This document shows positions 1 through 27,877 of a stretch of DNA of 64,000 nucleotides, piece after piece. The stretch comes from Laetmonice hystrix (taxonomy: Eukaryota), in contig OZ249436.1 in assembly GCA_965235115.1 (NCBI GenBank), positions 8,868,001-8,932,000 on the forward strand, given 5' to 3'. The notes beneath the pieces are model-generated. The model ran no database searches, was not told the origin of the DNA, and saw only the letters and a list, made by a program, of their open reading frames with translations. How positions within the stretch are numbered: the stretch's first letter is position 1; every line of letters starts with the position of its first letter. The translations under genes and the position numbers were made by a program.

Positions 1-230
1 GCGTGAACTCCAAGAAGCAGTTCGTAATCGGACACAGGAGCGTGAGAACCTTGGGGTTGACCTGTATGGCATACAACAGGAGCTGGCCCGTCACCAGATG
101 ATGTTGGAGAAAAACCACGACCAGTTCTCCAACCTACAGCAGATCCGTACACATGAAGATAACAACCTTGCTCATACCCAAGATATGTATCGGAAAAAAC
201 AAAGGGAGGTGACTACTGAAAAAAAGAAAG
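1..230 (+). CDS. CCDC40: CCDC40 exon (partial): [37 protein letters not shown]...
   Basis: Open frame from base 2; ends at AAG|GCAAGT (GC donor), phase 1. Confidence 0.85.
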
Positions 231-3200: not shown

Positions 3201-6200
3201 TTTAAAGATGACATCAATCAGCAGTTAACAGAGACGAGTGATATCGAGTGTAGCATCACTCATATGCAGAATGACATGCTCAAGTTGAACACACTCCTTC
3301 ACAAGGAGCGTGGCATGGAGTATAACCTACAGCAGGGAAATATTCTCATGGAAAACGATTTCATCGGAGGACTGAGGGTAAGATTCATCATCCCTGAACA
3401 TTTAAGATGACATGCATACACCATTGTGTGATGCCCGAAGAGAGTGTCTCTTTCTAATTGATAACTAATAACAGAGGATTTAAAGATTGGAAAGATTTTT
3501 TTAAGTGAATCTAATGTTTGTGTTGATGTCTTTGGTTCTAATCACATGATCTATGTAAATAAGAAAAAAACACCATTAAATAAGCAAGTGACATTAATGT
3601 ATGATTGGACAATGATTTTGTCTTCAGGCAGCTGAGCATGAGTCTATCGATATGCAGAATGATTTGGATAGTCTTAAAGAAGAGAAGGAACGTTTACTTA
3701 ATAGCCTTGTAGAAGCCGAGTGAGTACAGTAGCTATCCACGTGCACCTGTTTAGTTATCAGCCTGTGAAGTTAAGTGTAACACAACGCCTAATAGCATCG
3801 TTAACTTGATTCATCAAGCATGTCATGTCAAAAATAAGATAGACTGGATCACACTGAAATATTAAATGTTCAACTTACAGACTTATGTACTGCATTAATA
3901 TTGCATTTAGACGGAGGCATATCTCTACCAAATTGTACAATTGATAACGCTGCTCAAGTAAAGCTAGAGATTAACACTCCTGCTATCGGTTACACCAGGC
4001 GTCAGATCATGCTGTGGGAGAAGAAGACACAGCTGGCCAGAGAAACCCGTGCCGCAGTGGACTCTGAGGCCGGCCAGGGTGAGATATCTGCAATGAAGGC
4101 TGAGATTCATCGTATGCAGGTTCGATACACCCAGCTGATGAAACAGCAGGAACGTATGATCCAGGAGATGGAAAAGGCTGTCTCTAGGTGTGTGTCTCAC
4201 AATTGATATTAGAATCTTGGACACTTGTGATCATTTGAAGAAAAGTTATTATTACATGGCCAGTGAATGGGGGCATTGGGGGAAGGAGGTAAATAGGGAA
4301 AATATCGATGTATTGTATGTGTTGAATTCTTCAGACGGGACACCATTGTGACCAGGGGAGATGCACAAGCTAAGACAAACAAGAAGGTTTTAACAAAGGG
4401 AACTTTCCAGCGGCAGATGGCTGAAACAAAGAAAAAGATTAAAACAACCATTCAGGTATTACAGTACTTTCCTTGTTTACATGATAACTTCATATATATT
4501 TTTTCTGTTTTCGGAAAATCATTGCGCAAGTGGAATCCATGTGGTGTCTTGCAGTTGTAATAGTTCTAAAGTTTGCCACCAGATGCCAGTAGTGCTATAG
4601 TGAAGAAATATACACAATGTGACTAGAAAAAGGCCAATTCTCAAATCAGCAGCCTTAGAACTGGGTTAATGTTTTAAAAAAACAGTGGAGAGAGAGATTA
4701 CACATAGGTTGTCATTATGTATGATGGTGTGTTCAGGAGGCGAACCTGTCGGATGGAGAGATCCGGGAACTACGGGAAGCTCAGCAGGAGCTCAGCCAAC
4801 AGCTCGAGGAGCGCCAGCTCAACATGCAACAACTCCAGTCCACGGCTGACACACTGGATGGAGACATAGACCGCCTTCTGGAAAACAAGCAGAAAGTGAG
4901 CTTTGAACCTTTACTTTTCTCTGTTGATGTAGGTATTAGGTGGAAGTCCTTGTTATAATCAATGAGGGACTTCACACTCCTTGAGACGCATGCGCAACGG
5001 CACATTTCAGGTCATATCCCCGTGGCGGCAGCAGTGTCGCCCGGTCCTCTTGGCTACACATTAGTATGATATACGATAAAATGCTAATCTGTGGCAGGAC
5101 GTGTTTAGACTATTTGTTATGAAAAATAATAACTTGATAGCAGCTTCACCATGTTGTAGAACTGCTAAACGTACCATAATATTTCATAGCAAATGGCACT
5201 ACGGCACCTAGCGATAGATTAGCCTTTCGTCGACCTATCTAACGTCATAATAATGTGGGCCCAAGGGGACCGGGTTGATAGTGCTGCCGCCACGTGGAAA
5301 AGACGGTAACAAAGTCCCTTATTGTTTCAGAACAAAGCAATGAGTTATGTTAAAAGGAAATGTGAGTGTTTGACGGAATTTGATTGACCACTAGAATTTT
5401 CAAAATATTTTTATGGGGGATAGCCTTTGTCCTTAGGAGTACAAAGAAACAAAAAAAATCATATGTCACCGAATTAGATTTTTTTATACAGGCCTCCGTA
5501 AAAAATGGGTCTTTACTATAGGTTTTAATGGGAAGAACTGGATTTTTCAGACATTTTGACTAATAGTTAAAAAACGACCACTGATTTTCTCCTGAAACTC
5601 GGTGACAAGATAAAGTGGATCAGGACTAATAGTATAAAACAAAAAAATTGGGGGTCAGCGAATTAAAAAAAAAGTTACAGCCTGCCAAACAGTCAGTGCC
5701 TTGGTAAAACACGGGTCTTAACTATAGCATTCAATGGAGTAGACAGGTTCTGGCACACAGTTTGGTTCATGGTTTAAAAAATACTCCCGATTTCCACATC
5801 AAACATTGACTGCATAAATAAGCCAAACATTTTTTTGTTAAAGCTCACTACGCGGCACTTTGAATACTCATTTCCCCAGTGGTACCAATGCGACTCACTA
5901 GGTGGCGCTTTGAACACTCACATTTCCCTTTAAAATTATACTGAGCTTTTACATTATAGAAGCCTGAATTAGATACGATGTTTTTTTATTATTTATTTAA
6001 TATTTGTTAAACAATGTTAAGTGGTCAATCATGAGCAGACATCGAGTATTCTGTGCTGCCAGTTTGGCAGTTCATGCCTTGATCCAGTGGGCTATGAATC
6101 AGTCGTTGAATAACGAATGACTTGTCGTATTTTAGAACCTACAAGAGCTGGTGAGCAAACAACAGCGGGCCAAGTACTACCAGCAGGCCAAAGACGGTAA

Positions 6201-6381
6201 ATACACACGGCTTTGTAAGACTGACTCGGCCGTAGACACAGAGTTTGAGAAACAGACCGACCGAATGCAGACCCTTGGAGCCATCGTCGATCGTCTTAAC
6301 CAGGAGTATCCCCATGCAGCCACGGCTATGCGCCGTGTTACACTCTCACTTCAAGCCCATACTGCTACTTCAGAAGCCTAA
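1..6381 (+). CDS. CCDC40: Coiled-coil domain-containing protein 40 (axonemal 96-nm ruler), 5'-truncated by the window; 14 coding exons: <1-230, 448-605, 767-907, 1138-1241, 1363-1606, 1811-1993, 2211-2456, 2683-2896, 3208-3377, 3628-3719, 3999-4187, 4335-4455, 4737-4895, 6136-6381
   Basis: Exons join in frame with phase-compatible splice sites. Peptides match remembered CCDC40 motifs ([82 protein letters not shown]). Stop TAA at 6379-6381. Confidence 0.93.
448..605 (+). CDS. CCDC40: CCDC40 exon [28 protein letters not shown]...
   Basis: ttttag| acceptor, CAG|gtcag donor; inside ORF 426..644. Confidence 0.9.
767..907 (+). CDS. CCDC40: CCDC40 exon [24 protein letters not shown]...
   Basis: catcag| acceptor, GAG|gtacag donor; 47 codons. 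Confidence 0.9.
1138..1241 (+). CDS. CCDC40: CCDC40 exon [27 protein letters not shown]...
   Basis: aacag| acceptor, AG|gtacgt donor, phase 2. Confidence 0.9.
1363..1606 (+). CDS. CCDC40: CCDC40 exon [23 protein letters not shown]...
   Basis: ttttcag| acceptor, ACG|gtatgc donor; inside ORF 1352..1621. Confidence 0.9.
1811..1993 (+). CDS. CCDC40: CCDC40 exon [19 protein letters not shown]...
   Basis: tttttag| acceptor, CTG|gtaggt donor; 61 codons. Confidence 0.9.
2211..2456 (+). CDS. CCDC40: CCDC40 exon [22 protein letters not shown]...
   Basis: ttccag| acceptor, GGG|gtaggt donor; 82 codons. Confidence 0.9.
2683..2896 (+). CDS. CCDC40: CCDC40 exon [19 protein letters not shown]...QKKLRIE
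   Basis: gatag| acceptor, A|gtaagt donor, phase 1. Confidence 0.9.
3208..3377 (+). CDS. CCDC40: CCDC40 exon [27 protein letters not shown]...
   Basis: ttaaag| acceptor, AGG|gtaaga donor. Confidence 0.88.
3628..3719 (+). CDS. CCDC40: CCDC40 exon [30 protein letters not shown]
   Basis: cttcag| acceptor, GA|gtgagt donor, phase 2. Confidence 0.9.
3999..4187 (+). CDS. CCDC40: CCDC40 exon [40 protein letters not shown]...
   Basis: accag| acceptor, AG|gtgtgt donor; strongly conserved CCDC40 segment. Confidence 0.92.
4335..4455 (+). CDS. CCDC40: CCDC40 exon [27 protein letters not shown]...
   Basis: cttcag| acceptor, CAG|gtatta donor. Confidence 0.9.
4737..4895 (+). CDS. CCDC40: CCDC40 exon [27 protein letters not shown]...
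   Basis: gttcag| acceptor, AAA|gtgagc donor; 53 codons. Confidence 0.9.
4961..5323. mobile_element. Decayed palindromic MITE in the last CCDC40 intron
   Basis: Ends AATGAGGGACTT / AAGTCCCTTATT. Internal arms cgtggcggcagca..cccggtcctcttgg and ccaaggggaccggg..tgctgccgccacg are imperfect inverted repeats. Confidence 0.6.
5354..5929 (-). mobile_element. TTAA-flanked non-autonomous DNA transposon (Kolobok-like), short copy
   Basis: TTAA at 5350-5353 and 5930-5933; TIR A(A/G)GGAAATGTGAGTGTT. Reverse complement is near-identical to both ends of the 20339-21529 element. Confidence 0.8.
6136..6381 (+). CDS. CCDC40: CCDC40 last coding exon [23 protein letters not shown]...SEA*
   Basis: ttttag| acceptor; stop TAA; matches the CCDC40 C-terminus. 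Confidence 0.9.
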   Translation, partial: NLQELVSKQQRAKYYQQAKDGKYTRLCKTDSAVDTEFEKQTDRMQTLGAIVDRLNQEYPHAATAMRRVTLSLQAHTATSEA

Positions 6382-7402
6382 CTTTGTAAGGTGCATAAAA
6401 AGGGACCATACTAAAAACAAGACTAGGCTACGTCTGGATATTCTGGTTTTAGAAAAACTGTACCCATTTGTAGGCTTCAATTTGTTTTTGGCTATAGCTC
6501 TGTATTGCATGAATTATGAATATTTAATGAAGGTTATCAGAAAATATGGTCTTTAAAAAAATACATACATGTGTATTTATTTTTCAGGAACTCATTTAGA
6601 ACATAACTTGTAAGGCTTTGTGGTATGTTCCCTGCACCATGTTGGAAACATGTAGATCTAGACTTTGCCAATATTCCAACAAATTTATTGTGACAGTTAT
6701 TCACAGATTATAATCTACTAGAAATGTGAGGAAGTATATTGTAACTTGTAAGGTGCACCATTATCATTTAGTGATGGGCTATTGTTCATTAGCTTAGAGT
6801 AACTTTTACAAAATGGCAGTTCTTTAACTGAATACATAATTTATTTTAAGCATACAATTTTTTTTAACGAAATAGAAATTTATATAATTTATGTTCTTAC
6901 ACTGGCAGATCACTGGTGGAATGTACAGAAGTCCCCCCCCCCCCCCCTACTTTTCTCAAACTTAAAGTGCTAGCAAAACAGGTAATGCAACTCGGTGAGG
7001 TTCTTGCTTCAATGCAAACTTTGATAAATGTTTCTCACCTAGTACTGCATCTGACAAAATGTAACTTGCACAGACACAGGACAATTTTTTTTCACTGATG
7101 AGAACACCGGATTTGTAAGCATAAGTTACAATGTGTTTAATGATGGCAACAATGTATTTATAAAGCGTAACAAAGTTACATGACAGAATACAGGCTAAAA
7201 CAATGTATGCACGTTTGGACACAATGTATAAATTTGAAGTAGCTACAAATCGTATTGTGTTTGTTAAAACTTTGCCTTATCATGAATCGATGCGCCGACA
7301 CTTGACGTTAGTGGGCGGTCTCCGTCATATCCTGATCCAGCCGGTCATTCTTCAAGTCGGCATTTGGTGGACTTTGGAACCTTTGATAGTGATCATTACG
7401 AC

Positions 7403-7712
7403 GCAGGGGCGGATTGGGTGGGGGGGGGGGGGCTTTGGGGGCTTAAGCTCCCTCCCCCCAAGCTGACTCCAGGGTTATCATTTTGCAGTGTGTCTACGGC
7501 GCATCTAAGAGGTTTTATACATACATCGAGCGCCCTCCCCCTTTGAAAAATACTGAATGTAGCGCCCCCCCCCCCCCCCCGAAGTCCTGTTATTCTGGAA
7601 ATAAGTTCCCAAAGAGCCCAAAAGTTTGTCTTCTTTTCCAGGGTTTCCTGAATTATCCTTGTTGGGTTTCTCCCTCGTTTGGCCAGCTTTACCTCTTGGA
7701 TCGCCCCGCCCA
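7403..7712. repeat. Interspersed short repeat with GGGGCGGAT(C/T)..GATC(C)GCC ends and poly-G/poly-C tracts; related pieces at about 13670-13822, 15478-15527 and 22721
   Basis: The same terminal motif pair and homopolymer tracts recur at several loci. Confidence 0.45.
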
Positions 7713-8652
7713 CCTTTTCAATGGTAGGCCGCACCTGCCGACAGCAGGTCAGGCTGTTTAGAAAGGCAAACCACGTGTTGTATGTTGTCATAGGTTATCG
7801 GAACGACCTGTCTGAACTATCTGAAGTGATCACACTCTGTGCCGGGCCGGCTGATTTTCCGACTCCTCGAAATCTGCTGAGTGCTCACCTCCCACAATGA
7901 CCGGTGTCAGATGCAATCTGGTCCCCCATGCAAAATGGTCCTAGCAGACATTTTTGTACTGTGCAAAATCATTAAATGGTCCCCCACCGTGCAATTTGGT
8001 CCCCTTATAAGTAACCAGGGTCGCGCTATCTATGAATGTATTAGGATCAATCAGGGGCTTTATAAATATAAAAGTTTTAGTGACGTTTAATTAATGGGGT
8101 TTTGGGGAGGTGTTGTTTTTTTTTATGGTTTTTCGTTTTGTTTTTTTGTTTGCCTAGCGGAGTAGTGTACATAAGTAAAGGAAGAACAGAAGAAAGGGCT
8201 GAACATAAGAAAGCCAGTGGTTATTTTTCAATATTCGATCTCTTTCAACTCCCTCACATGCATGGGCTAACTTCCTAAGCTACGCAGTGGAATATTTAGA
8301 TTGACCTATTTCGCCTATTGTGAAGTAAAAGATTTGTGCAGATCAATTTTGCTAGATTATCTAGAGTAAACTTCTCCCAATAATACCAATCCCTTGATAT
8401 CAACCATACGTGTATGCTAAGAACAGTTTGCTTACATGTGGGCCTATATAATTATAACATGATAAACATCACAAGTAGGCCAACTCGGGCGTAAGCGAAT
8501 GTTTACCAAAGATATCATTCTTATTGATCAAACCTATCCCATTTTGTGTTGCGTCTGTATAGAGACGGAAAGGAAATCGATCAATCTATGTTTGGTCCTA
8601 TACACGTGTAAGTCAATAAAACATATCATCAAGGCGGAGATCTAGCCTTTCA

Positions 8653-8981
8653 CAGGGTTCCCACGGTCATGAAAAGTCATGAAAAGTCATAGAAAATGAA
8701 ATTTGGTTTTCCAGGCATGGAAAAGTCATGGAAAATAGAAAAACGAGGGAGAGTCATGGGAAAGTCATGGAATTTGAGATTTCTTCTGAATCACATTTCA
8801 GTTTCTGCACATTGGGTCTGAATTGTAAAGTTTCAGGACGTACTACATAGGGGACAATTCTCGGATTTTAGTCTATTTTGTTAATTTCATCTGGAATTGA
8901 TCATGAAATTTGGGAGTTTTGGTCTGGAAAAGTCATGGAGAAGTCATGAAATTTCAATATAGCGAACCTGTGGGAACCCTG
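8653..8981. mobile_element. MITE with 12-bp TIR CAGGGTTCCCAC and internal AAAGTCATGG subrepeats
   Basis: CAGGGTTCCCAC at 8653, GTGGGAACCCTG ending at 8981; TTTCA directly flanks both ends (apparent 5-bp TSD). Confidence 0.8.
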
Positions 8982-9027
8982 TTTCAGCAAGATTGGGAGA
9001 ATCCAGGACTCATAAATTTTTTTAATT

Positions 9028-9037
9028 TTTATTTATT
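9028..9037 (-). terminator. Candidate polyadenylation signals (two overlapping AATAAA) for TYMP
   Basis: TTTATTTATT on the + strand, about 30-40 nt past the TYMP stop. Confidence 0.35.
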
Positions 9038-9068
9038 ACTCAAATTACTACGGATTATGACGTAATAA

Positions 9069-9205
9069 CTATTGGAGCAGGCCGGTAATCCGTTGGAGAC
9101 GCTCGGCTGGGGGTGGACTAGTGGAGATGATGACAGCAGACCGTACCATGTCCAGCTGACCGGGAGTTAACAGAGTATCGTGGTGTACCTTGGCCCAGAT
9201 ATCTC
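9069..9205 (-). CDS. TYMP: TYMP exon 8 ([26 protein letters not shown]...LLQ*)
   Basis: ctgtag| acceptor; TAG stop at 9071-9069; WxxVH matches the TP C-terminus. Confidence 0.85.
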
Positions 9206-12200
9206 CTACAGGTGCCAAATGGACGTGGGAGGTAGAAATATTTTATAGCGGAGAGAAAAATAAATTAAAACATGATAGGATAATAGCCGCATGATATTTG
9301 ATTTAGTAAGCCTATAGTAACTCAGTCATATCATATAATAGGTAGTTTTTAGATGCAATCTTGCTCAATATAGATCTATAGCTTTATTACAGGGCAGAGT
9401 CCACTGTGGTGACTCTCTAATATAGGTACTTCTTCGCCATAATATACATGTAACATGTAGCCTACATATATTAGCGACCTAAATACTATATAACAGAACT
9501 AGTTTGTCCACACAACCAGAAGTGTTATTGCATGCATTGATCATCGAATCGTTGAAACCCACCTTTATTAACGAAGTCGCCAACTTGAGCCATAAGTTCT
9601 ACACCCACCGCCAAATTGATGCTATCCCCGGGCTTAGTGCGCCCTGCACCAAGCTGGTGGGCTACCGTGCCGCACGCCAGGGCATCGATCGCGTGAATAT
9701 ACCCTATAATATATATGGTAAGAGAAAAAGAATGGAACATGGAAATATCATGTATGCTTTTCAACGTAGTTATCACTGTGAAAGGGGCGGGATCCAGTGT
9801 CGTTGTAACGGGTAAGAAGAACCATCATGCGTGGTACGGTAATTTTGCCGTTTTCTTCGAAAGATTTCAACCTAAGTAGTATACAAACATGGCGGTTTTA
9901 CTGCAGGCTTCTCTCGGTATGAAATCAAAGCAAAGCCATCGTTGGAGAAGATGATGGGATACAACTGGGCTATCTATTCAACTCATTCAAACATGTGTGC
10001 CCCATACAGATGACACTTCTGCTATGTTCATATAACGTTCCCTTTCCAGAAGAAGAGTAGGAGTGCCTACTGATCGCTGCTGGCCTGTCAATGGATTATT
10101 GCCTCGGCTGAACGCTTCAGGATCAAGATTCCGCTCCACCGCTAAGCCCCAGTAAAATGGCCTCCTCCTTAACAATGGAGGGTGTTATGGACAATGAACA
10201 GTCGGAACATTATAAGATCCTGGTTGACGCCGTGCACGGGGCCGACCCTGCCGTGGTGGAGCAGCACGCTGTGCTTTGTGTCGAGCCAGTGTTCATGTAC
10301 CGTGCCATCAGCGAGGGACGCAGCGATGTCGTCTCAGCGCTGCTCAACCACGGCGCCAAGAACGTGAACGCTTCCATCACACCTGGCATCCGTACGACAC
10401 CACTACACCTGGCGGCACTGGGAGGACATTGTGACATCGTCAAGGACTTGGTGTCACACCACGCTGACGTTAACCGGCTTAACGATCTCAATCAAACAGC
10501 GCTGCACGTCGTTTGCTCGGAGGGTCATTTAGACATCGTCAAAGTGTTACTGAAGCAGGGCGTTGATGTCAATATAACAGACTACAGGAACGAAACTGCA
10601 TTGGTTAAGGCAGCCCGTGAGGGCCACAGACATGTGATTGAACTTTTTCTGCAGCGTCTCCCGGCATCCCACACGGTTTCATTTAAATCTGTTCTAAATG
10701 TAATAACAAGCGGCAGGCATTCCCCAGTTAAAATGCTTTTGCAACGTTTTTCTGGCAGTAGATTTGAAAGTGAGAGTTCACTCGTTGCAGGGTCATCTCC
10801 CACACGAAGAAGGATTTTGTGTCGTGAGTTGGGGTCATGTTGGTCTGGTGTGCTGCACGCGGCGGCCATTCGTGGTCATAAACTTGTGGTGAAGACGCTA
10901 CTGGAGCACGGGGCCAATGTGAACGCTGTGGACAATACTGGGGTGACGGCGATCGGGAGCGCGGCAGGCTACGGTCGTAAGGGCGTAGTATCGCTGCTGC
11001 TCGCCTGGGGGGCGGACGCCAGGGGGCAGGACGGGGAGGGTGAGACGCCCTTGCTGAAGGCGGCCTGGGGCGGCCATGCTGACATCGTCCGTATGCTGGT
11101 CCAGCAAGGCATGGGCGTCAGCGACACTGACAAAGACGGTATGTCGCCCCTGCACTTCGCCGCCAGAAAAGGTCACTTGGACACAGTGCGATGTTTGATA
11201 GACCTTGGAGCCGACGTTCACGCCATGACACGGGGAGGGATGGCATACTGCATGGATTACCCGGTCCTATCGGGAGCCACGCCACTCCACATGGCCGCCT
11301 GGAGGGGCCATGTGCGCGTCATGGAAGCCATCATCAGAAAGGGCGCCGATGTGGACGCATTTACTTTCATGGGACGGACGGCCCTTCATATTGCTACGGA
11401 TACGGCACTCTACTCGGGCGAGAAGAGGAAAATTAAATCCACAGCACAACCAAATACGGTGAGCATTTCTACTCCTATAGTAGGCCTAGGCCTATAACTA
11501 GTCTTCTACACTCAATGGAAGGAATAGGCCTACTTATAGAGTTGGAAGTTTTTGTCGCTTTCAATATTATGAATAATAATGTTCTCAAACATGAATGTCT
11601 ATATAGCATACGTCCCTGCTAAAGCCCCTATATAATATTATGTCCTTGAATCCAACACTGTCGTGAGAAATTAAATAGATCACTTACTAACCTATATACA
11701 TCTTTCACAAATGACGTAATGTATATTAGTTTAACATTGCAGTCATTGCAGTCATTGGAATCATTGCAGTTTGAAAAAAAGTGTTTCCACTTCTGATATA
11801 CCTGTTTACTTCACACATCTTTAGTGCATGCATGCAGTTAAAGGGAGGGAAAACTTCCACGGGAAATAAGGTTTCGTAGACCAAATGAAACACCAGCATT
11901 TACCTCAGGGCAATAAATGCCACAATTACGTTGTCTGAATAAAGTAATTAACGTGTAACCGCCCGATGTGTGACGCCGCTGGTTCTGCTTGTGTGTTCAA
12001 CACCTCGGACGTTTACAAACGTTGGTACTCCAAACATCGTGTCTGTGAGCAGAGTAACACGTAATGTTACGCAATATGCCGTGGTGTGCAACATTCGGCT
12101 GTGATGAACACACAAGAAGGTCAAGGTAAGAACCAGCGGCATCACATATCGGGCGGTTACACGTTAATTACTTCATTCAGACAACGTAATTGTGGCATTT

Positions 12201-15200
12201 ATTGCCCTGAGGTAAATGCGGGTGTTTCCTTTGGTCTACGAAACCTTATTTGCCGCGTGGGTTTTCCCTCCCTTTAAGGCTAGAACTTGGTTGTGTCGTT
12301 GTGTAGGACGGCGTGCGATTGTTACTCGACCACGGGTGCCAGATGAACCCTCGAGATGCCGAGGGTCACACAGCGCTCGACTTGACGTGGACCATTGGCG
12401 GCCACCCGGACGTGGCCCTCCTTTTGCTGGCAGACGGAGCCCAGTTCAGCCAGTCCAACATGTCCGCCTTTGTTAGCCTCATCCTTGAGGACAGTGGTGC
12501 TGAACTTCATTTGTGTGTGTGTAAAGCTCTACTGCTGTCGGGGAACCACGGCCGCCTGTCTATCCCAGCCGGCGACATGGACATGCTCTCAGAACGACTC
12601 CGGGCGCTGTCTTCATATGAAGAATTCAGTGAGTGGCTCTATGGCTACCTCTTCAGTCCTCTCAACCTCAGAGATATATGTCGGATAGCGATTCGGCAAT
12701 GTCTCATGCGATCCGCTCGTGGTAAGTCCATACGGAGTAGCCTCCTCAAACTCCCGCTTCCACGAGACCTTCAGAACTTTCTGCTTCTCGGTGATATGAG
12801 AGAGGCTTGTGCACAAGAATCTCCTTTCTCTCCCGAAAGCGAGAATTCAAGTGACAGCACCTTTAGTTGTAACAGCACCCAGGAGGACTAAGCCTGGGGT
12901 GAAACCCGGTTCCCTCGATCCCTCTTCATGTACCTAGATGTTATGGGGTATTTTCACCCTTTCGCACATTTTACTATAGGAATTCCCCACGTTGATGTAG
13001 GCCATATATACCTAAAACTGCGGCGGATCCGGGACCATCTTTCTATTTGTCGAAACTGTTTTTTTTATTTGACCCGGACTTTCCCTTATAATTGACCAAT
13101 TAAACTTTTGTAGTGCCTTTTTTCAGCTTCCCTTCGTGGATCCTGACTTTTTATAAGTTTTCCCTTAGTTAATCATTAATGCAATTGATGTTATAACGTT
13201 CGTGCGTACTATGCATATAAGCACAAATTAGTCTCAGGTTAAGAGAAAAGTGTGATGGAAGTTGGTGTCATGTATGCATGCCGAAATTACCGTTATAAAT
13301 GTTCAAATCGGGAAAACATGTTCATCTGTGAACCTGTATGTCCGTAAAATGGTGAGAGTCTGATGCGAAGAAACTACTGAAACCCATGCTTGACTACATC
13401 ATCCCATTAATAAATATACAATAATAGTAATCCCTTCCAAACAATTTCTATACGGGTATACTGATAGCTTCTCAAGCATTGCCCCAAGTTTTTATACTTA
13501 TTGTCGATCATATTGAATTGCAGATCTACGCAACTGACATATGTAATTCAACTTATAACACATTATTACTGGATATTCTACTTCATACCTGTTCTCTGTC
13601 TTTTTCTTAATTATTATCACTCATTGACAAGTATAGGCCTATACAAGCACTTAATATTTTCGAGAATAGAGGGGCGGATCCAGGACGGGGGTGGGGTGTG
13701 GTGGGGGGGCAACCCCCTCTTAGTGCATTGTTGGCAAAATAGGGTCTGGATTTTGCCAGAGGATTTTAATGTTAGCAAGACGCCCCCCCCCCCCTCCCCA
13801 GCCCCTCCACTGGATTCGCCACTAACAAATAATCAGCAAAGTTTAGCTTACCACTTTCTTGCGCTATGATGTGGGTGATGTCGTCAGCACAAGGTAGAAT
13901 AGCACTAAGGTTAGCGTCGGGCTTGAACAAGGCCTCGACCTTGTTACGGTCTGCTCCCTGGTAGGTGACGATGTCGATAAATTTAGTCCTGGCTGATCCG
14001 TCTCGGAGCACGCCATCAATCATGGCCTCTCCCAGCACGGCACTTGACGCCACACCAGTCGACATCAGTAACTGACCTCCTGTAATGTAGACGTACGGTA
14101 ACGTTCACTATACTCCTTAACTACATTTACCAGTTAGGCCAGCAATCCATGTCTATAGTGCGTAATGCGTAATCAAAACAATGAAAACACGCATTACGCA
14201 CTACGCATATGGAATCACATTTTTCATTGATTTTGATGAATACGCCTTACGCACTACGTATTACGCATCACGCCCACAGTACGCACACATGGATTCCTCG
14301 CTGATGTTATAGTTCTCCAGCTCCGTATACTTTACAACCTGAAAGGCTAGCTACTAGGCCGATATGCCCGAATGTGTGTCACGTATAGGCCTATGATAAT
14401 ATGAAAGGTATTCCATATATCCAATTGCTACGTGTAGATGCATGTACTGACTCCTGTAAGATTTGATAATTACTCATCGCGACTTATGATACACGGCTAT
14501 ACAGTATGCCACCTCCTCTCTGCGGCATTATAATCGGGATAATATCAGTCCAATATCACCAAACAATTATCCTAATTCTGAATCTAAACAAAAATCATTT
14601 ATAAACATTAATTTGACCGACAACGTTTTCAAGATAATATTTGGTTGATCATGGCGCCTAAACAGTTGACAGATTGGCTATACTCTGTCTGTTTTACAAC
14701 CAAGAGAACCAGCAAAGAACTTAACGAAACCATTGTCATGTCATGCTCAAGTCAGATTATCGAGGTCAGGATGACATCAAAAAGAGACTTTCAATATGGG
14801 TCGATTACGTGTACACAATAACTTCTATATGGACTGAAATAAGGTGTATTAAATTTGGAATCTGAGACTTGGACAAATATATTAAACAAATATTATCTGG
14901 GTTGTTATTGTTTGTTGTGATTTGTACAGAGAGGGTCCCACCTAGTTTACACACCACTTGGTGCAGGTCGGCTGGCCCGTCCCCGTTCAAACAATGCACT
15001 GCCTCGGCAACCTCGAGCGAGTTACCGATCATCTTCCCCAGTGGATCCGACATCTGCATCAACAGGCCCGTCGTCTTGATCCCCTGGGACTTCCCGATGT
15101 CAATCTAGAAGAAAAGGTGCATGTTGTCCATTGGCAATCAACCTTTACTAAACTTTTTAGTTCTCACATGGTTCATTGTAAAAGAGAACCCCCTCAAAAA

Positions 15201-18200
15201 CAAAGCTATACGACTGATTTTGTTCATTGGTTGATGGATGTAATCTTAGCCTACCATTCCTTGACCGCCATGGCCTTTCATCTTCAAATTTATATTATAC
15301 ATTTAAAACTTTGTTGGTACGTCTCAACGAGTCCACAAAACAGAGGTACCCTTTGGTATTCGTTATATCTGATGGACGTTTCAAGGGTAACCATGGGGCA
15401 AAAACATATTATTATAAGCCAAGTCTAAAAATATGAGAAATATTATCATAATTGGATGATAAAAATAACATTGTTTGGAGGGGCTGGAGCCCCCACCCCC
15501 CCCCCCCACCCCCTCTTGGATCCGGGCGTTTGTATAGAGAAGTACGTCACCTACAATGATCTGACCAAGGCGGCGTGCGTCCTGTTCAGTCTTCATGAAC
15601 GCCGCCTTGCCGAACGTCAACTGGAGAACGAGGGCGTCCAGGTTTTCAGCCGCTTTCTTAGACATTATCGAGGCTGCAAAGGGACATTATCGAGGCTGCA
15701 AAGGGACATTATCGAGGCTGCAAAGGGACATTATCGAGGCTGCAAAGGGACATTATCGAGGCTGCAAAGGGACATTATCGAGGCTGCAAAGGGACATTAT
15801 CGAGGCTGCAAAGGGACATTATCGAGGCTGCAAAGGGACATTATCGAGGCTGTAAAGGGACATTATCGAGGCTGCAAAGGGACATTATCGGGGCTGCAAA
15901 GGGACATTATCGAGGCTGCAAAGGGACATTATCGAGGCAGGAAAGGGACATTATCGAGGCTGCAAAGGAAAACCAGCTCACTCCTCTCCTTGAATTGAAT
16001 AGTAATATTTACAAGCTAGTAATAGAAATTCAACGTTCATGACACAAATATTGTCCACCCATTGCATCCATGCAGGCACGCTGGGTGAAAACTCTCTTCT
16101 TGAAGAAGGGTAGACCAAGAGATTTCGCTCTTGTTGAAGGAGAGAACATGCGTATATGGGTTGGCCTACCCCTGAACGACGACTTCTGTCAACAGCGGAA
16201 CCTAAAGTAGGCCTACGTTATACGCCTGCGAAAATATGCCATGTCAGGTTGATGTATAGCGTTCTTCCCCCGCTAATTTACTAGTTCAGCTTTTCTACCC
16301 CTAGAGATTCGATCGTTTCCTCACTTGAAAGGTAATTTTATAGGTGAGATCATTGGCATCCGGTTTATTTGCAACGGCCAACCCCATAATATCCGTTACC
16401 GTAATGTACGTTTTAATGTTCATCATTTCATTCATCGTTTTCCTTTCTCTAGGTCCCAGTTGATACGGAACTCGCATAAATGTAGAGAAGAGATATCACA
16501 AAGACCAGCAACATCGACTTCATTAATACTCGACCCTCACATACATCACATGGCATATTTTTGAGCAACTCTCATGACAATCATCAAAGTGAGATAACTC
16601 TACACTAAGTTGGATCTTGCAGCCAAAATTTCACAAAAATATGCCTCAAAATGGCTGGCGTTGACCTCCCCCCCCCCCCCCAACTACACCCAATTGTAAA
16701 GTGTTATTAAGAATGTGGAGTTTACCAGCTATCAGAGACTTGTTCTCCACCGTGCCAGTCGTATCTCTGGTGGCGTACAGTATTTTATCGGCTGGTACCA
16801 TGTTATCGGTAGGACCTACGATGAATGCCCCGACCTCTTCAATCTGGGCATGCAGATGTTCCATAGTGAAGGAAGACCGGATGTTGGGGATGGCGTCCAG
16901 TTTGTCGAGGGTTCCACCGGTGTGACCGAGCCCACGTCCTGTTATCATCGGCACCTGACCGAACCAAAATTATTACATTGACAACTATAATCATTATACG
17001 TCCTGTTATTATCGGCACCTGACCAAATCAAAATGGTCACATTGCCAACTATAATTATATATACGCCTCGTTTTTATTGTTTCACGAAGTTCAGAAAAGG
17101 ATACAACTCTCGTACCGATACCTCAACCAATCAATGTCTGCCAACATTTTTGTTGAAATGATAGGCTTGTATAGCCTGGAAACGATAGCCTAACTAGGCA
17201 TACATCTTGAATACTGCCTGAACGGGACGCGTATTTCAAGTGGCGGATCTGCCAATCCTTTACCCATCGCTCCACTGGGTGAACAGGCCTACTCGTGGAA
17301 CGGAAGATAGTCCTACTCTATAGTGTATTGGACGTGTTTCACTTGCGTTGCGATGGCTTCCGTGCGTCTACGATTTCTCTCTCTCTCTCGGAAACTTCGG
17401 AAGTACGTAAAAGTGCTCGTACGGCCGCGTAAGGAATTGTAGGCTTGCGTAACCCGCGTAAGCACTCGTAAGAAAATCGAAAAGCATAATCCACTTGTAG
17501 GGTCTTAAGAGCTCTTCCGATTGTCAGAGGACATCAAAATGGAGCCCGAGGAGGTCGCACTAATTGGCCTCACCTTCGCCTTTTTGGCCGAAGGTGAGGA
17601 ACAAGAAATAGAAGAAGTTTTTGGGTTCGCTTTGGACCTTTCGCGCTGAGTACTTACGAACTCTATGCATCTTCCGATATCTTACGCGAGGCCACGCGCA
17701 CTATGCGCTCTTCCGATAATATCTAACATTTTTGATCTGCTCGTAAGGAGGTCCCGAGAGCGCTCTGGCACTCGTCAGACGTCTGAAGCCCTCGGAACAC
17801 TAGTGAACTCTCGTAATGCTTCATTCACTTAAAATGCTTGCGTGTATTCCCGATTTGGATTTTTTTCCTCGGAAGAACTCTCGTATAAGACCGCGCAAGG
17901 GGTGAATCGGAAGCATCGCAACGCAAGTGGATCACGCCCATATGGCAGAATTAGGCTTATAAATCTTTGGAAAGAGTGCTAATGAAATAGACCCAGGAGG
18001 CCCGCTATTCTCTCCGTGAAAAGGGATTATAGTTCATACCCGGTTTTTATAAACGTGCTGAAATAAACGTAAAGATCTGAGGGTTTTATTGTCAATGTAA
18101 TTCTAATGAGGGGAGTCTGAAGGAAAGGTCCGCTCACTTTGAGTCCGCACGCTGCCAGAGCTGGGGTTAGTATTAGACTGCTCTTGTCGCCAACTCCTCC

Positions 18201-19516
18201 TGTGCTGTGCTTGTCGGCTACTCGGCCCCGCATTGTCTCCGGCCAGCGCAGTACCTGGCCCGAGTGTAGCATCGTGTCTGTCAGTGTGACCGTCTCGCTA
18301 TCACTCAGCCCGTTTAGAAATATCGCCATCAGCATGGCACCTGTCAGGGTATCAAACTTTGGTGAGAACAATTGCCTACAAGGCAGTTTGCCGTGCTGCC
18401 TTGGGGGGAGGGGGGGGGGTGACGGTGCTTAGTGCAAAACACTTCAATTGTGCACCAGTATTGAAGTATCGACGTAAAGTCCAGGTAAAATTAACCTTGT
18501 AGTATAGTGTGAAGTTGGTCATTTGGTTGAGTAGGCATAGTAAGATGTCCCCCTGTGAACCTGACGGTAGCAAGATGCCCCCCCCCCCCCCCGCCCCTGT
18601 GAACCTGAAGGTACATATTGCGCCGCCCTATGGAAACAGATTTTCCCCAGAGACTTTTTACACTCTGCGTCTAACTCCCCTCTCCACCGCCACCACCGCC
18701 ACCACCACTACCCCACCACCCCACCACCACCACTACCCTTTCAAGATCCTTGTACTCTGCCATGAACTTCATAGAGGCTGAGGTATCAATCTTTCAATGA
18801 GGTATGTCATCCTGGTCGGTCAGGGCAGGTAGATATCTCCTGACCACGTCCACTTTCTCGTATATATTCTAGCCCAAATATACGTGGTGTACGTGCTTCT
18901 GTAGCAGGATGAGGTTATCCGCTTCTGTAGCAGGATGAGGTTATCCGCTTCTGTAGCAGGATGAGGTTATCCGCTTCGAATGCTTTTGAGGAGGGATCGA
19001 CCCCCAAACCCGCCCACCCCCCTCTGGACACGCGCCTGTGTCAGGTACTTTGAACTATCAGGTTTTCAGCCTTATCTTTTCATTCCACAAGTATAGCCAG
19101 ATTCTTGATCATTTTCTGCATAACAGATTTTATATTAGTATATAGGCCCCTATACTTTTCAGGACTATAACAGTCATGAGGTCATGGTCATGGCCCTACC
19201 AAAATCCTGGATCTGTCCCTGTTTATCAAAATGACGAAGTAAGGAGGGGGGGGGGGTTCAGTGAGGTCTTAAAAGTAGATTTCAACGTTGCACGTGTTCC
19301 CATACCGTTTCAGTAAGCGAGAGCCCAGCCTATTTCAGACAATCTCGATTCCATGCATTGGCCCGTGGCTCCAACAAGGGTCTATGTCCTACCTGTCTGA
19401 GCATCTGTGATCTGTCCTTGTACCACTCCATCGATGAAACTGGCCACCTCGCAATCTGTCAGCTCATGGCCATCCCTCTTCTTTGCGATCAAGTCGGGAA
19501 CCCTCAGATCAGGCAT
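9069..19516 (-). CDS. TYMP: Thymidine phosphorylase, 8 coding exons (19516-19393, 18340-18138, 16954-16726, 15673-15555, 15104-14942, 14079-13852, 9703-9563, 9205-9069); 1344 nt, 447 aa
   Basis: Family motifs [75 protein letters not shown]. All introns are GT-AG and phase-compatible. Confidence 0.95.
9563..9703 (-). CDS. TYMP: TYMP exon 7 ([33 protein letters not shown])
   Basis: ttatag| acceptor, G|gtgggt donor; C-terminal domain motif. Confidence 0.9.
10157..11458 (+). CDS. Ankyrin-repeat and SOCS-box (ASB-like) protein, exon 1 with about 10 ankyrin repeats
   Basis: Repeated TPLHLAA/TALH/GADVN-type motifs in ORF 10157..11497; ACG|gtgagc donor, phase 0. The start codon is uncertain. Confidence 0.85.
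11842..12273. mobile_element. Long-TIR palindromic MITE with TTAA TSD (Kolobok-like AG..CT termini) in the ASB intron
   Basis: TTAA at 11838-11841 and 12274-12277; about 145-bp near-perfect inverted arms (AGGGAGGGAAAAC...GCCGCTGGTTCT). Confidence 0.85.
12307..12891 (+). CDS. ASB-like protein exon 2: final ankyrin repeat plus C-terminal SOCS box
   Basis: gtgtag| acceptor in phase 0; SOCS box [16 protein letters not shown]...[15 protein letters not shown]; stop at 12889-12891. Spliced product is 628 aa. Confidence 0.85.
   Translation, partial: DGVRLLLDHGCQMNPRDAEGHTALDLTWTIGGHPDVALLLLADGAQFSQSNMSAFVSLILEDSGAELHLCVCKALLLSGNHGRLSIPAGDMDMLSERLRALSSYEEFSEWLYGYLFSPLNLRDICRIAIRQCLMRSARGKSIRSSLLKLPLPRDLQNFLLLGDMREACAQESPFSPESENSSDSTFSCNSTQED
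13409..13414 (+). terminator. Candidate poly(A) signal for the ASB-like gene
   Basis: AATAAA about 520 nt after the stop codon. Confidence 0.3.
13852..14079 (-). CDS. TYMP: TYMP exon 6 ([12 protein letters not shown]...DGSARTKF)
   Basis: ttacag| acceptor, G|gtaagc donor. Confidence 0.92.
14140..14302. mobile_element. Short MITE rich in TACGCA/TGCGTA; inverted related copy at about 22370-22584
   Basis: AATCCATGT..ACATGGATT ends; internal text (atcaaaacaatgaaa, cattgattttgatg, cgcatcacgcccac) is reverse-complemented at 22.4-22.5 kb. Confidence 0.6.
14942..15104 (-). CDS. TYMP: TYMP exon 5 ([32 protein letters not shown])
   Basis: ttctag| acceptor, G|gtggga donor. Confidence 0.92.
15555..15673 (-). 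CDS. TYMP: TYMP exon 4 ([29 protein letters not shown])
   Basis: tttgcag| acceptor at the proximal repeat unit; ATT|gtaggt donor. Confidence 0.88.
15661..15968. repeat. Minisatellite: 14 x 22 bp GACATTATCGAGGCTGCAAAGG spanning the TYMP exon-4 acceptor
   Basis: Units start every 22 bp from 15661 to 15947; three units carry substitutions. Confidence 0.95.
16726..16954 (-). CDS. TYMP: TYMP exon 3 ([19 protein letters not shown])
   Basis: Inside ORF 16646..16954; AG/GT boundaries. Confidence 0.93.
17330..17939. mobile_element. Non-autonomous TIR element, probably PIF/Harbinger-derived
   Basis: About 32-bp imperfect TIR GG(A/G)CGTG..CACTTGCGTTGCGATG..CTTCCG. Internal codons at 17607-17630 read NRRSFWVR, resembling the basic-WVR N-terminus of Harbinger transposases. 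Confidence 0.65.
18138..18340 (-). CDS. TYMP: TYMP exon 2 ([11 protein letters not shown])
   Basis: Inside ORF 18027..18371; AG/GT boundaries. Confidence 0.93.
18895..18977. repeat. 26-bp tandem repeat x3.2 (GCTTCTGTAGCAGGATGAGGTTATCC)
   Basis: Three identical units in TYMP intron 1. Confidence 0.95.
19393..19516 (-). CDS. TYMP: TYMP exon 1 [41 protein letters not shown]
   Basis: ATG at 19516; ACAG|gtagga donor, phase 1. An upstream exon cannot be excluded. Confidence 0.88.
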
Positions 19517-20338
19517 GTCCTTTGGGAGAAGAAACGTATTTTCGCAAGGATTGGAAGGACCTACAATCGCAGTCTATACGCAAGAAGTAAATGTGGCTCC
19601 CACGCCTGTATGCCTAGATGCATTCCAGGGTTAAAGGTTTCGTTCAGCGATGGCCCCGTCAAGGGAGTTATGGGCATCCGTTATAAATATACAACCTTAT
19701 CCGGAACACACGCACGCAAAGTACTTATAAAAAGGCCTAGTTAAATAACAGCGTCAGTTGTCCATTATGTTGACGGACATATCTGAGTGACAGCTATCTG
19801 TACTGAACGTGGTCGGAATTGTTATGCTTCCTTCTTGTATTCTCATAAACATCTCAGAGGACAGTAATATGAGGTACGCATGCCTTATCAAGGAACTGCA
19901 CCGGCTTATCAAGGTATCTGGGTCAAAATCGTCTCGATATAAATATGCATACTTCTAGCAGGTACGTATATAATGCATCGGTTATCCATATAACACACAC
20001 CCGCAAAAAATATACCACTGAAAAACTAATGTTTGTGACGTACTGTTTGTCATCTGTCCATCTCCGGGACGACAACCCTTTTAAAGTTATTCTCACTAAC
20101 TTTGTTCGTCAGAATAAGTCATTCTGACCAACAGGTTTGTCGCAGTGTACTGGTCCAGATATGCCATGTATGAGCTATAGCTATAGAATGAGCGTGGACC
20201 TGAATGTGGAAATATGTACGGTGACCCTGTTTGAGTTAGGATTCCGCGCGGTCAAGGGCGTGAACAAACTTCAGATCAACTGCGAACAACGGCTGGACCG
20301 AAAAGTACAGCGTACGAAAAAAAATAAAATGGCCTTAA

Positions 20339-21529: not shown

Positions 21530-24500
21530 TTAAGTGGGACAGATTCCCTAAGCACTCGGTACATGCTTCGACCGACTGACGTCATGTCTCGGCTGTACGA
21601 CGAAGGTCGCAATGTTGGGGGGTGGGGTGGTGGGTGGCTAGGTCGGGACAGTGGCCCGGATGTAGACAACAGCAAACCGAAAGTCCCACGGTGCAGCCGT
21701 ACCGAAAATCGAACACTTCTCACTTAATTAGCCTGTGTCGGACGTTAGAGAGTTAGAACATCTGGTTTGCTCGCAGGTGAAGAAGAGACTGTTTTGCCTC
21801 TAGGGTAGAAAATTCGAGGATAGGTAGCCCCCCCCCCCCCCCCATGTTGAGAAATTCGATTTGAACTATGTGCATGTGCGTATGGCGACTATTTACTGCT
21901 CATCTCTACATCCGCGATACCGCTTTAACGACTTTGCGCAAATCCTGGGGGAATGGCCGCTTCATACATCCGAGGCCCACTCGGAACACCGACGCTGCTT
22001 CTGATTGGCTGTTTCTAGGTCATATCCGGAGGCGAAGCAGGTCTCATTGGCAGTCAGTCCACTTAAAGACCGGCCCCGACTATAAAAGCCGTCCCCGTGC
22101 CAGTGTGTATCGGTTAGCTCAGCTGAGGTCAACGTTACGGGTTCCCGGCCTTTAAAGCAATAACGACTGCATAAGAATAGTGCTGGGATTATTTTTTTAG
22201 CGGCCACGCGGACTCCATGCCCACCCCATTTGCTTTTGCACAGCATATGTAAATATAGCGGGCCAATGGCCTTGGGCACTGGTCAGTCTGGTTGGCTATT
22301 GAACACGCTATGTCATGTTTAGGATACCACCTGGGGCCGGTTGCACCAAAGGTGTCGTAAGTGCTTGCATGAATCCATGTGTAGGTCTACGTAGGCCCTA
22401 GTGTGGGCGTGATGCGTAATGCGAACTGCCTAGTGCGTAGGTACCTATAGGCCTATATGCATCAAAATCAATGAAAACAAGTTTGAGTGATTCCATGTGT
22501 GCGTATAGTGCGTAATGCGTGATTTCATTGTTTTGATTACGCAGACCGCAATACGCAATACGGACACATGTATGGGTTCCTGGCTTAAGACATGGCGTAA
22601 GTGCTGTTGCACCAAAAACGCTTACGCATCATGTAGGCTACTAAAGTCCGTCTCTTACGACATGACTTAGATTCTAAGTCACGTAACACGTGACGCACTC
22701 GGCGAAGGAGAGCACATCACTTGGCGGATCCATTCAGGAAAGGGGGGGGCACCTTTAAATTGGTGGATAGTCGGTGGGCCGCCTTTTCGGGGGCCTAGGG
22801 GGCCCTCCCATAGATTTTTGTAGGAACGACGGAGACATGTTTTCTGAACATATAGGCCTATAATAGAGTAAATTTCTCGCAAATCTTTCAACGAAATTCC
22901 ATTCTTTTTATGCATGAAATAGAGAAAATAGGCAAGAGTTTGAAAATTGGAGAGTCACTGGAGAGTGCGTACTAAGGGGGGCTCCAGTTTCACATTATTA
23001 AAAGTTATCCTTAGCCTATATAGAAGACTTTTTTGTGTTCAGCAGTTACGGTGATTTTGAACATTAGGTGTATGTATTGGAACAGTAAACGATTATACCT
23101 TACTACCACACAAAGTAATTTACGCCAGCTTTATGCTAAAAAAATGTTTCTTATCCCCTATAGGATATACTTCTAGCCCACTCTCAAATGTTTAGCCACC
23201 AAATATTACTAATAATTGCACTCGCGCCCAACTTACGCCACCTTCCACCACACGTAGGCCTGTGTAGATTGTAGGTCCGTGTCCTATGTTGTGTTGTTGG
23301 AACGGTCTCCTCGTAATGTTTTTGGGTTGTACTAAACTTGACTTGTGCGTGCGTAGTGCGTAGGAGAGCGACACTTCACAACCACAATTTTCAGTCGACG
23401 ATTGGATTATGAATGGGTCTAAAGAAAGGATGGGCCAACGGACACTCCTATATCAACGATTCCCATCCGTACTGACAGACACGGTCCCGCCGGGATCGTC
23501 TCATCCTGTAGAGGGACGAGTCCTGGAATTGAGGACGGGGACGGGGGACGTGAAACTATGAGTGGTTGGTTGACTAGGAGGGGCCGGATTAAATTTAAGG
23601 CCTCCTAGATGTAAAGGAAGCTCATGTTACAAAACATTTGGCCGTATTCGCCGTTGGTGCATAGGTCGTTGGTGGCGCCATCTGCTGGCAATCCCATTGC
23701 TGTTGCCTTTGTGAACTGGTTCCCGGCTCACTCGCTGGGTGGCTCTGTGGTCGACGCGAGAGCCACCTAGCGAGTGAGCCGGGAAGCAGCTTACTGCCTG
23801 TGGTGCCTGTGGTGCCTGTGCTGTGGTGCACGGTGACGTTCTTTGTGCACGGCCATATCAGGAATGAGGCATATAATATGTCTTGAGGCATTAGTGATGC
23901 AAAAAGGGTCTGAGCGTTGAACGATTTTAATTCATTTTCTATTACAATTGCCAACATGAAGTGCAAAATTGTATAAACATGTATAACTTAATTCGTAGGC
24001 CCTAATATTATTTATATCCAGCTAATATCGCTATGGTCTAGTTTATAGGTCTAGGTCCCTACTATTTCACGCGACCATCAGCCATATCCCTGTAAGGGAA
24101 ACCGGGGATTATTGAACATTTTTCACATTATTGGTGTTTTCGGAAAACCAGAGGCCCTCCAATGATATCGACACTTACCCCAATGCTTCCTTTATTATGT
24201 GGACAAAACAGTGGCTGAAATCAAACGATAAGTTATAGAGAATGAAACAATTTTCCAACGGGCATCGCGTATTACACTCGTTCCCTTTACTCGGGTCAAT
24301 GTCCGACACGTTACTGTCAGTCATTGCCAGGTCTAGGCCCAATGTGCCCATTGGCATTGGTCGTAACTGGCTTGGGCCTAATTTTGATAGAAATCATATT
24401 CCTTTTACTCTGAAGCTTATTTTCACTTTCCGACATCCGGTTTAGCTTGAAGAAGCTGTGCCTCTGAGCTTTCTGTTTACAAACTTGTAGACGACACAAA

Positions 24501-26439: not shown

Positions 26440-27877
26440 CACCCTACCGTCCCCTACAGTCACCCTACCGTCCCCATGCAGTCACCCTACCGTCCCCTAC
26501 AGTCAGCCTGCCTCGCCCTGCAGTCACCTACCGTCCCTTACAGTCACCCTACCGTCCCCTACAGTCACCCGGCCGTCCCCTACAGTCAGCCTACCGTCCC
26601 CTACAGTCAGCCTACCGTCCCTACAGTCACCCTACCGTCCCTACAGTCACCCTACCGTCCCTCCGGTCACCCTACCGTCCCCTACAGTCACCCTACCGTC
26701 CCCTACAGTCACACTACCGTCCCCTATACAGTCACACTACCGTCCCTCCAGTCACCCTACCGTCCCCCACAGTCACCCTACCGTCCCCCACAGTCACCCT
26801 ACCGTCCCCTATACAGTCACACTACCGTCCCTCCAGTCACCCTACCGTCCCTCCAGTCACCCTACCGTCCCCTACAGTCACCCTACCGTCCCTACAGTCA
26901 CCCTACCGTCCCTACAGTCACCCTACCGTCCCCTATACAGTCACACTACCGTCCCTACAGTCACCCTACCGTCCCCCACAGTCACCCTACCGTCCCCCAC
27001 AGTCACCCTACCGTCCCCTATACAGTCACACTACCGTCCCTCCAGTCACCCTACCGTCCCCTACAGTCACCCTACCGTCCCCTACAGTCACCCTACCGTC
27101 CCCTACAGTCACCCTACCGTCCCTACAGTCACCCTACCGTCCCCTATACAGTCACACTACCGTCCCTACAGTCACCCTACCGTCCCCCACAGTCACCCTA
27201 CCGTCCCCCACAGTCACCCTACCGTCCCCTATACAGTCACACTACCGTCCCTCCAGTCACCCTACCGTCCCTCCAGTCACCCTACCGTCCCCTACAGTCA
27301 CCCTACCGTCCCCTACAGTCACCCTACCGTCCCCTCCAGTCACCCTACCGTCCCCTACAGTCACCCTACCGTCCCCTATACAGTCACACTACCGTCCCTC
27401 CAGTCACCCTACCGTCCCTACAGTCACCCTAATGCCCCTACAGTCACCCTACCGTCCCCTATACAGTCACACTACCGTCCCTCCAGTCACCCTACCGTCC
27501 CTACAGTCACCCTACCGTCCCCTACAGTCACCCTACCGTCCCTTAAAGTCACCCTACCGTCCCCTACAGTCACCCTACCGTCCCCTACAGTCACCCTACC
27601 GTCCCCTACAGTCACCCTACCGTCCCCTACAGTCAGCCTACCGTCCCCTACAGTCAGCCTACCGTCCCCTACAGTCACCCTACCGTCCCCTACAGTCAGC
27701 CTACCGTCCCCTACAGTCACCCTACCGTCCCTTACAGTCACCCGGCCGTCCCCTACAGTCACCCTACCGTCCCCTACAGTCACCCTACCGTCCCCTACAG
27801 TCACCCTACCGTCCCCTACAGTCACCCTGCCTCCCCCTGCAGTCACCCTACCGTCCCCTACAGCCTGCAGTCACCCT
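26440..27877. repeat. About 1.44-kb minisatellite, consensus CAGTCACCCTACCGTCCCCTA (20/21/23-bp variants)
   Basis: Seen directly; accounts for ORFs 26332..27432, 27432..27938 and 27487..27846. Confidence 0.95.

Follow-up and report, generated by a model that had tools for sequence, protein, structure and literature searches.

Introduction

Tandem repeats laid over exon–intron boundaries have been described in amphioxus (lancelet), where they are known as "mirage" minisatellites. Examples include those of Adh3, the globin genes BflGb6 and BflGb9, troponin C and PGBD5 (PMC3087553, PMC3902484). According to the passages of these papers that deal with them, mirages leave regular mRNA splicing undisturbed, and Canestro et al. 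2002 is the work cited there for them (PMC3087553, PMC3902484). The two relevant papers found for the term "mirage", in a search of largely open-access literature, were on amphioxus. The array described here lies over the intron 3/exon 4 boundary of a thymidine phosphorylase (TYMP) gene and is, judging from its sequence, a further example of this repeat type. It is a head-to-tail tandem, its unit covers a real exon–intron boundary, and an AG is found in many but not all of its units (13 of 14). The portions of the amphioxus papers that describe mirages likewise give tandem units over such a boundary and an AG in many units though not in all. Mirages are further characterised by differences between haplotypes and by clusters with a homogenised interior and a divergent edge. 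For instance, an intron 3' end is copied together with the 5' part of an exon in the BflGb6 mirage as it is in TYMP, and the 22-nt unit of TYMP falls within the 10–72 bp given for Adh3. Unlike the amphioxus mirages, the TYMP unit holds an active-site codon, and the splicing of TYMP is predicted from DNA. The hosts are also different, since amphioxus is a cephalochordate whereas the best named matches of the CCDC40 gene found beside TYMP make the present host look lophotrochozoan.

Human genes offer further comparisons. The CBS 844ins68 duplication was reportedly the subject of a study by Romano et al. in 2002. In this allele the intron/exon junction that opens an exon is duplicated, as in TYMP; the account in PMC2630376 has the distal duplicate strongly favoured, the upstream exon piece treated as intron and normal mRNA produced. 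CBS 844ins68 consists of two 68-bp copies, whereas the TYMP array has 14 of 22 nt. Minisatellites of donor sites occur in F7 IVS7, CBS IVS13, 6-16, LMNB2 and PDGF, and the part of PMC1557585 devoted to them reports use of the exon-adjacent site alone or together with two neighbours. These arrays share with TYMP the presence of many identical tandem splice sites, but what they repeat is a donor rather than an acceptor. In them the copy next to the exon comes first, in the TYMP array it comes last, and 5'-to-3' scanning therefore cannot explain the TYMP case.

Results

The window, that is, the whole 64,000-nt stretch of DNA that was analysed, contains the TYMP coding region at 9069..19516 on the minus strand, with eight exons, seven GT-AG introns and a 447-aa product ending in a single terminal stop. 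Seven exons were placed by tblastn with 5 of the 120 listed homologs and the eighth was read off the sequence; exon numbers refer to coding exons alone. An AG directly before the start codon suggests an additional 5' untranslated exon. Homolog figures refer to the best 120 of 7882, among which there was no named animal protein, and identity to one of them (P0080) is 51% over 427 aa with one gap. Exon 3 gives a PF00591 match, and in PDB matches the exon 4 product aligns with human thymidine phosphorylase starting at residue 217. The motifs of thymidine/pyrimidine-nucleoside phosphorylases, with the equivalents of Arg202, Ser217 and Lys221, are found in one open frame (positions 84, 115, 172 and 186-192 of the 447 aa). 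Across the exon 3-4 junction the RDxTxT-SIxxKK spacing is 9 residues, the same as in 119 of the 120 listed homologs. In the human enzyme, as stated in the relevant section of PMC2719695, Ser217 and Lys221 contact the base and Ser217Gly has no activity. The Ser217 equivalent is encoded within the repeated unit, which thus carries an active-site serine codon. Elsewhere in the gene, intron 1 contains a perfect 26-nt repeat of 3.2 copies (18895-18977), off any known junction, and intron 6 hosts an antisense two-exon ankyrin-repeat gene with a SOCS box at its end (ASB-like, ~10157-12891, plus strand).

The preliminary description, whose sequence observations proved correct at each point checked, had reported 14 tandem copies of a 22-nt acceptor unit, and both TRF and a unit-by-unit reading bear this out (Table 1). 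TRF gives a 22-nt period and 14.0 copies, with 97% matches and no indels. The minus-strand consensus, CCTTTGCAG followed across the junction by CCTCGATAATGTC, joins 9 nt from the end of intron 3 to 13 nt from the start of coding exon 4, the junction having been set by homology and reading frame, and it is exact in 11 of the 14 units. Variants are confined to units 2, 4 and 6. Units 4 and 6 have a single change each; unit 2 has two substitutions and has lost its AG, as had been noted before. Units 7-14 are all identical, and the four changes across the array are too few for a tree. The 13 remaining AGs have their G at 15960, 15916, 15894 and so on, down to 15696 and 15674. No other occurrence of the unit was found within the 64-kb window with up to 5 mismatches allowed.

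Table 1 Features of the TYMP acceptor repeats and adjoining exons (positions in the window)
Feature	Position	Strand	Basis
22-nt x 14 minisatellite, intron 3/exon 4 boundary	15661..15968	-	TRF, unit alignment
Unit 1 with original T-rich intron end, acceptor G 15960	15947..15990	-	
Unit 2, AG-less, two substitutions	15925..15946	-	
Units 3-13, eleven decoy acceptors, each with stop at 197 or 202 aa	15683..15924	-	
Last unit, sole productive acceptor (G 15674), encodes A-S-I-M-S (Ser equivalent to human Ser217)	15661..15682	-	
Coding exon 4, 119 nt, donor GTAGGT at 15554	15555..15673	-	
Coding exon 3, glycine-rich GRGLGHTGG loop, Arg202 equivalent, phase-1 donor	16726..16954	-	
64-nt two-copy duplication of exon-3 acceptor	16934..17077	-	TRF, alignment

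The acceptor at 15674 alone leads to the full 447-aa frame. Translation via each of the 12 upstream AGs ends at 197 or 202 aa, with the last junction 635-884 nt downstream of the stops, and a functional mRNA from this allele therefore needs the last AG. The preliminary description had likewise claimed that only the last of 13 AGs yields intact enzyme, and that acceptors at multiples of 66 nt keep the frame yet meet a stop; the latter holds for +66, +132 and +198, the three in-frame acceptors of the 12. The unit-1 acceptor would create a 405-nt exon with a stop after 202 aa. A coding role for the array units was ruled out, as every upstream route hits a stop. Two other routes were also rejected: the in-exon AG at 15653, which is in frame but removes A-S-I-M-S-K-K and has a matrix score of -7.4, and skipping of exon 4, which gives a stop after 186 aa.

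Acceptor strength was scored with a crude local matrix trained on 20 real acceptors of the window, which themselves score from -0.6 to 7.4 when each is left out in turn. At -2.0, the productive acceptor falls under every one of these 20 values, though it exceeds the median of 247 intronic AGs (-5.2). By the same crude matrix the first copy reaches 1.4, 3.4 bits over the last, in agreement with the earlier claim that it keeps the native pyrimidine tract; it is also, as claimed, the most upstream copy, 286 nt from the last AG, and frameshifting. Seen from the intron, units 3-14 hardly differ, with a similar tract and an AG-free stretch of 20 bases (42 for unit 3), and the choice between them must therefore come from the exon side. 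The closest branch-like TAAT sits just 13 nt before each AG. The distance to the exon-4 donor is 119 nt from the last AG and 405 nt from the first. RNA structure masking the decoys was considered and rejected (z -0.11; 48 of 100 shuffles fold equally well), and Rfam returned 0 matches across the window.

Two of the seven TYMP acceptors are repeated, those of exons 3 and 4 only. In the case of exon 3, the downstream copy (G at 16955) is in frame and is the productive one, whereas the upstream copy (G at 17019) would shift the frame and lead to a stop at 168 aa; their scores are 5.9, for a site that is itself in the training set, and 3.9. Between the two copies, 11 of 64 sites are different, 10 of them intron-side. 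The one exon-side difference changes Met to Ile in the upstream copy only, and Met is present in 98 of the 120 listed homologs. The exon-3 duplication is the older of the two, and has the look expected of an aged, tolerated version of the exon-4 array. It is conceivable but doubtful that the genome preferentially duplicates splice-junction pieces, as two of seven TYMP acceptors might suggest, which would create a standing source of expression variation. Random placement of the five arrays of 1-20000 gives a probability of 0.008 that at least two fall on an acceptor (0.028 with approximate donors), and of 0.14 that at least one does. The window was chosen for having one such array; therefore two are not strong evidence of targeting, and enrichment is unsupported.

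Four sequencing runs (X1-X4) cover the region, with no RNA run listed among them; all come from one sample and one study, and so do not count as evidence independent of the assembly. Their listed records were compared with 13845-15695, a range that includes 35 nt of the array. Record 3 of X1 equals the window sequence over 1002 of 1002 nt, and a second haplotype is seen in X1-X3. It has three exonic differences, at 13907, 13931 and 14981 (two synonymous, one replacing Asp by Asn in a variable alignment column), with no listed exonic indel, and at least 16 intronic substitutions among the 40 rows listed; these small numbers would fit a gene under constraint. Record 8 of X1 (186 nt, depth 44.6) matches 15542-15680 apart from three other letters. 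After the last unit it goes back to 15661, and 47 further letters, about two more units, follow the match. Since this record re-enters the unit, the tandem is present in the reads, and the expectation that raw reads would contain the array is borne out to that extent; the count of 14 copies is that of the assembly. No array-free allele is seen among the records listed. In record 8 the tract of the last acceptor is one base longer than in the window. Given that the flank in record 3 is identical over 1002 nt, the extra base most likely belongs to the second haplotype, though a consensus error in the window is also possible. Given record 8, the tandem seems not to be limited to one haplotype. 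A simple unitig simulation gave 149 nt for the window haplotype alone, 170 for the extra base alone and 139 for both, and did not reproduce the observed 186 nt or the 47 extra letters. The possible sign of instability between haplotypes is one contig with a last unit one base longer, in one sample and over the 35 nt compared. The listed records of X2-X4 do not include most of exon 4, and a single contig spans that exon completely. X4 (share 0.10) has 151-nt records over intron sequence, on which it looks like DNA rather than RNA. Short dispersed repeats with very high run depth were observed at 14150-14302, which resembles ~22400-22630, and at ~15400-15510.

Discussion

We favour, at a probability of roughly 70%, a reading in which the array is a tolerated by-product and the exon-adjacent acceptor is chosen by exon definition. 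A 22-nt piece over the 3' splice site would first have become a tandem duplicate, with slippage or unequal exchange then raising the number of copies; this would have displaced the original intron end 286 nt upstream and left units 1-13 as surplus intron. The last AG alone is backed by the true exon 4, 119 nt from its donor, and pairing across the exon, as in the established model of exon definition, would select it. The introns flanking exon 4, at 1052 and 450 nt, are long enough for exon definition to be expected. Should an upstream AG occasionally be used, the stop would lie 635 nt or more ahead of the last junction and the mRNA would probably be cleared by NMD. Selection would maintain the last unit, as its codon is that of the active-site serine, and the array would be a product of repeat instability and no regulatory device. 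This is supported by the intact 447-aa frame via the last acceptor, with its conserved motif spacing, by the few exonic differences of the second haplotype and by the lack of a special RNA fold (z -0.11). The exon-3 duplication in the same gene, the amphioxus mirages and CBS 844ins68 serve as precedents. Some points count against it. The last acceptor is weak (-2.0) relative to the first copy (1.4), which makes some leak plausible; the branch-like TAAT is very close to each AG; a search that starts in the intron and stops at the first AG would end on an upstream copy; some pseudo-sites are used in human donor arrays; if the expansion is very recent, the intact frame may simply be older than it; and early duplication experiments, as referred to in PMC1557585, gave opposite results. 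A regulatory role for the array is unsupported. The preliminary description had proposed that the spliceosome must skip 12 near-identical acceptors or that the array tunes or disables TYMP; the logic of skipping stands, and skipping has precedents in mirages, CBS 844ins68 and F7, while tuning and disabling are unsupported, the frame being intact.

It is rather unlikely, though to be taken seriously, that the allele is leaky, with a sizeable share of splicing going to the first copy or the closest decoys and its products to NMD, so that TYMP falls with copy number, whether as a passive hypomorph or as a selected dial. The 3.4-bit advantage of the first copy and the NMD-type stops from all 12 alternatives fit such leakage, as does the use of pseudo-sites in the human 6-16 and CBS IVS13 donor arrays, to go by the section of PMC1557585 on them. 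The loss of the AG in unit 2 indicates that units can be silenced, but this unit is far from the productive site. The design expected of a dial, such as an in-frame product or a fold, is also absent, and the amphioxus papers, in their passages on mirages, report these without aberrant mRNA (PMC3087553, PMC3902484). The specific version in which the stronger original acceptor and the decoys divert splicing into NMD by copy number, setting TYMP dose, is doubtful.

A null allele, with this copy of TYMP put out of action by the expansion and the animal using the other haplotype or doing without, is very improbable. The weak productive acceptor (-2.0) would suit it, and the eight identical downstream units suggest a recent expansion, perhaps unfiltered by selection. 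However, the eight exons contain no other lesion, the contig with the differing last unit also re-enters the repeat, so that the tandem is seemingly not confined to one haplotype, and duplicated acceptors elsewhere give normal mRNA in the cases described in PMC2630376 and PMC3087553. That the array is an assembly artefact, absent or much shorter in the animal, can be given hardly any weight: the extra base of record 8 is missing from the window, the listed records of X2 and X3 end at ~15580 and no listed record spans the array, but record 8 returns to the start of the unit and continues for about two more, three units carry four private substitutions, and the flank in record 3 equals the window over its 1002 nt.

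The TYMP array extends mirage arrays to another invertebrate gene, a finding of modest significance. It can also serve as a natural substrate for the study of 3' splice-site choice: its 12 near-identical acceptors are spaced at 22 nt, a stronger acceptor precedes them, and a single splicing outcome is productive, with an enzyme as read-out. Its importance would be greater only if copy number alters the level of TYMP.

Other features of the window

The 3' part of CCDC40 (~14 exons, 1-6400, plus strand) is convergent with TYMP, and the best named matches of the CCDC40 exon near TYMP are from molluscs, a bryozoan, a brachiopod and annelids. A satellite array without Rfam match occupies ~33600-64000, with 848/866-nt units over the last 30 kb; frequent spacings of 1714 and 3427 suggest a higher-order structure. 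A 21-nt minisatellite of 68 copies (26440-27863) has long open frames on both strands and is probably non-coding.
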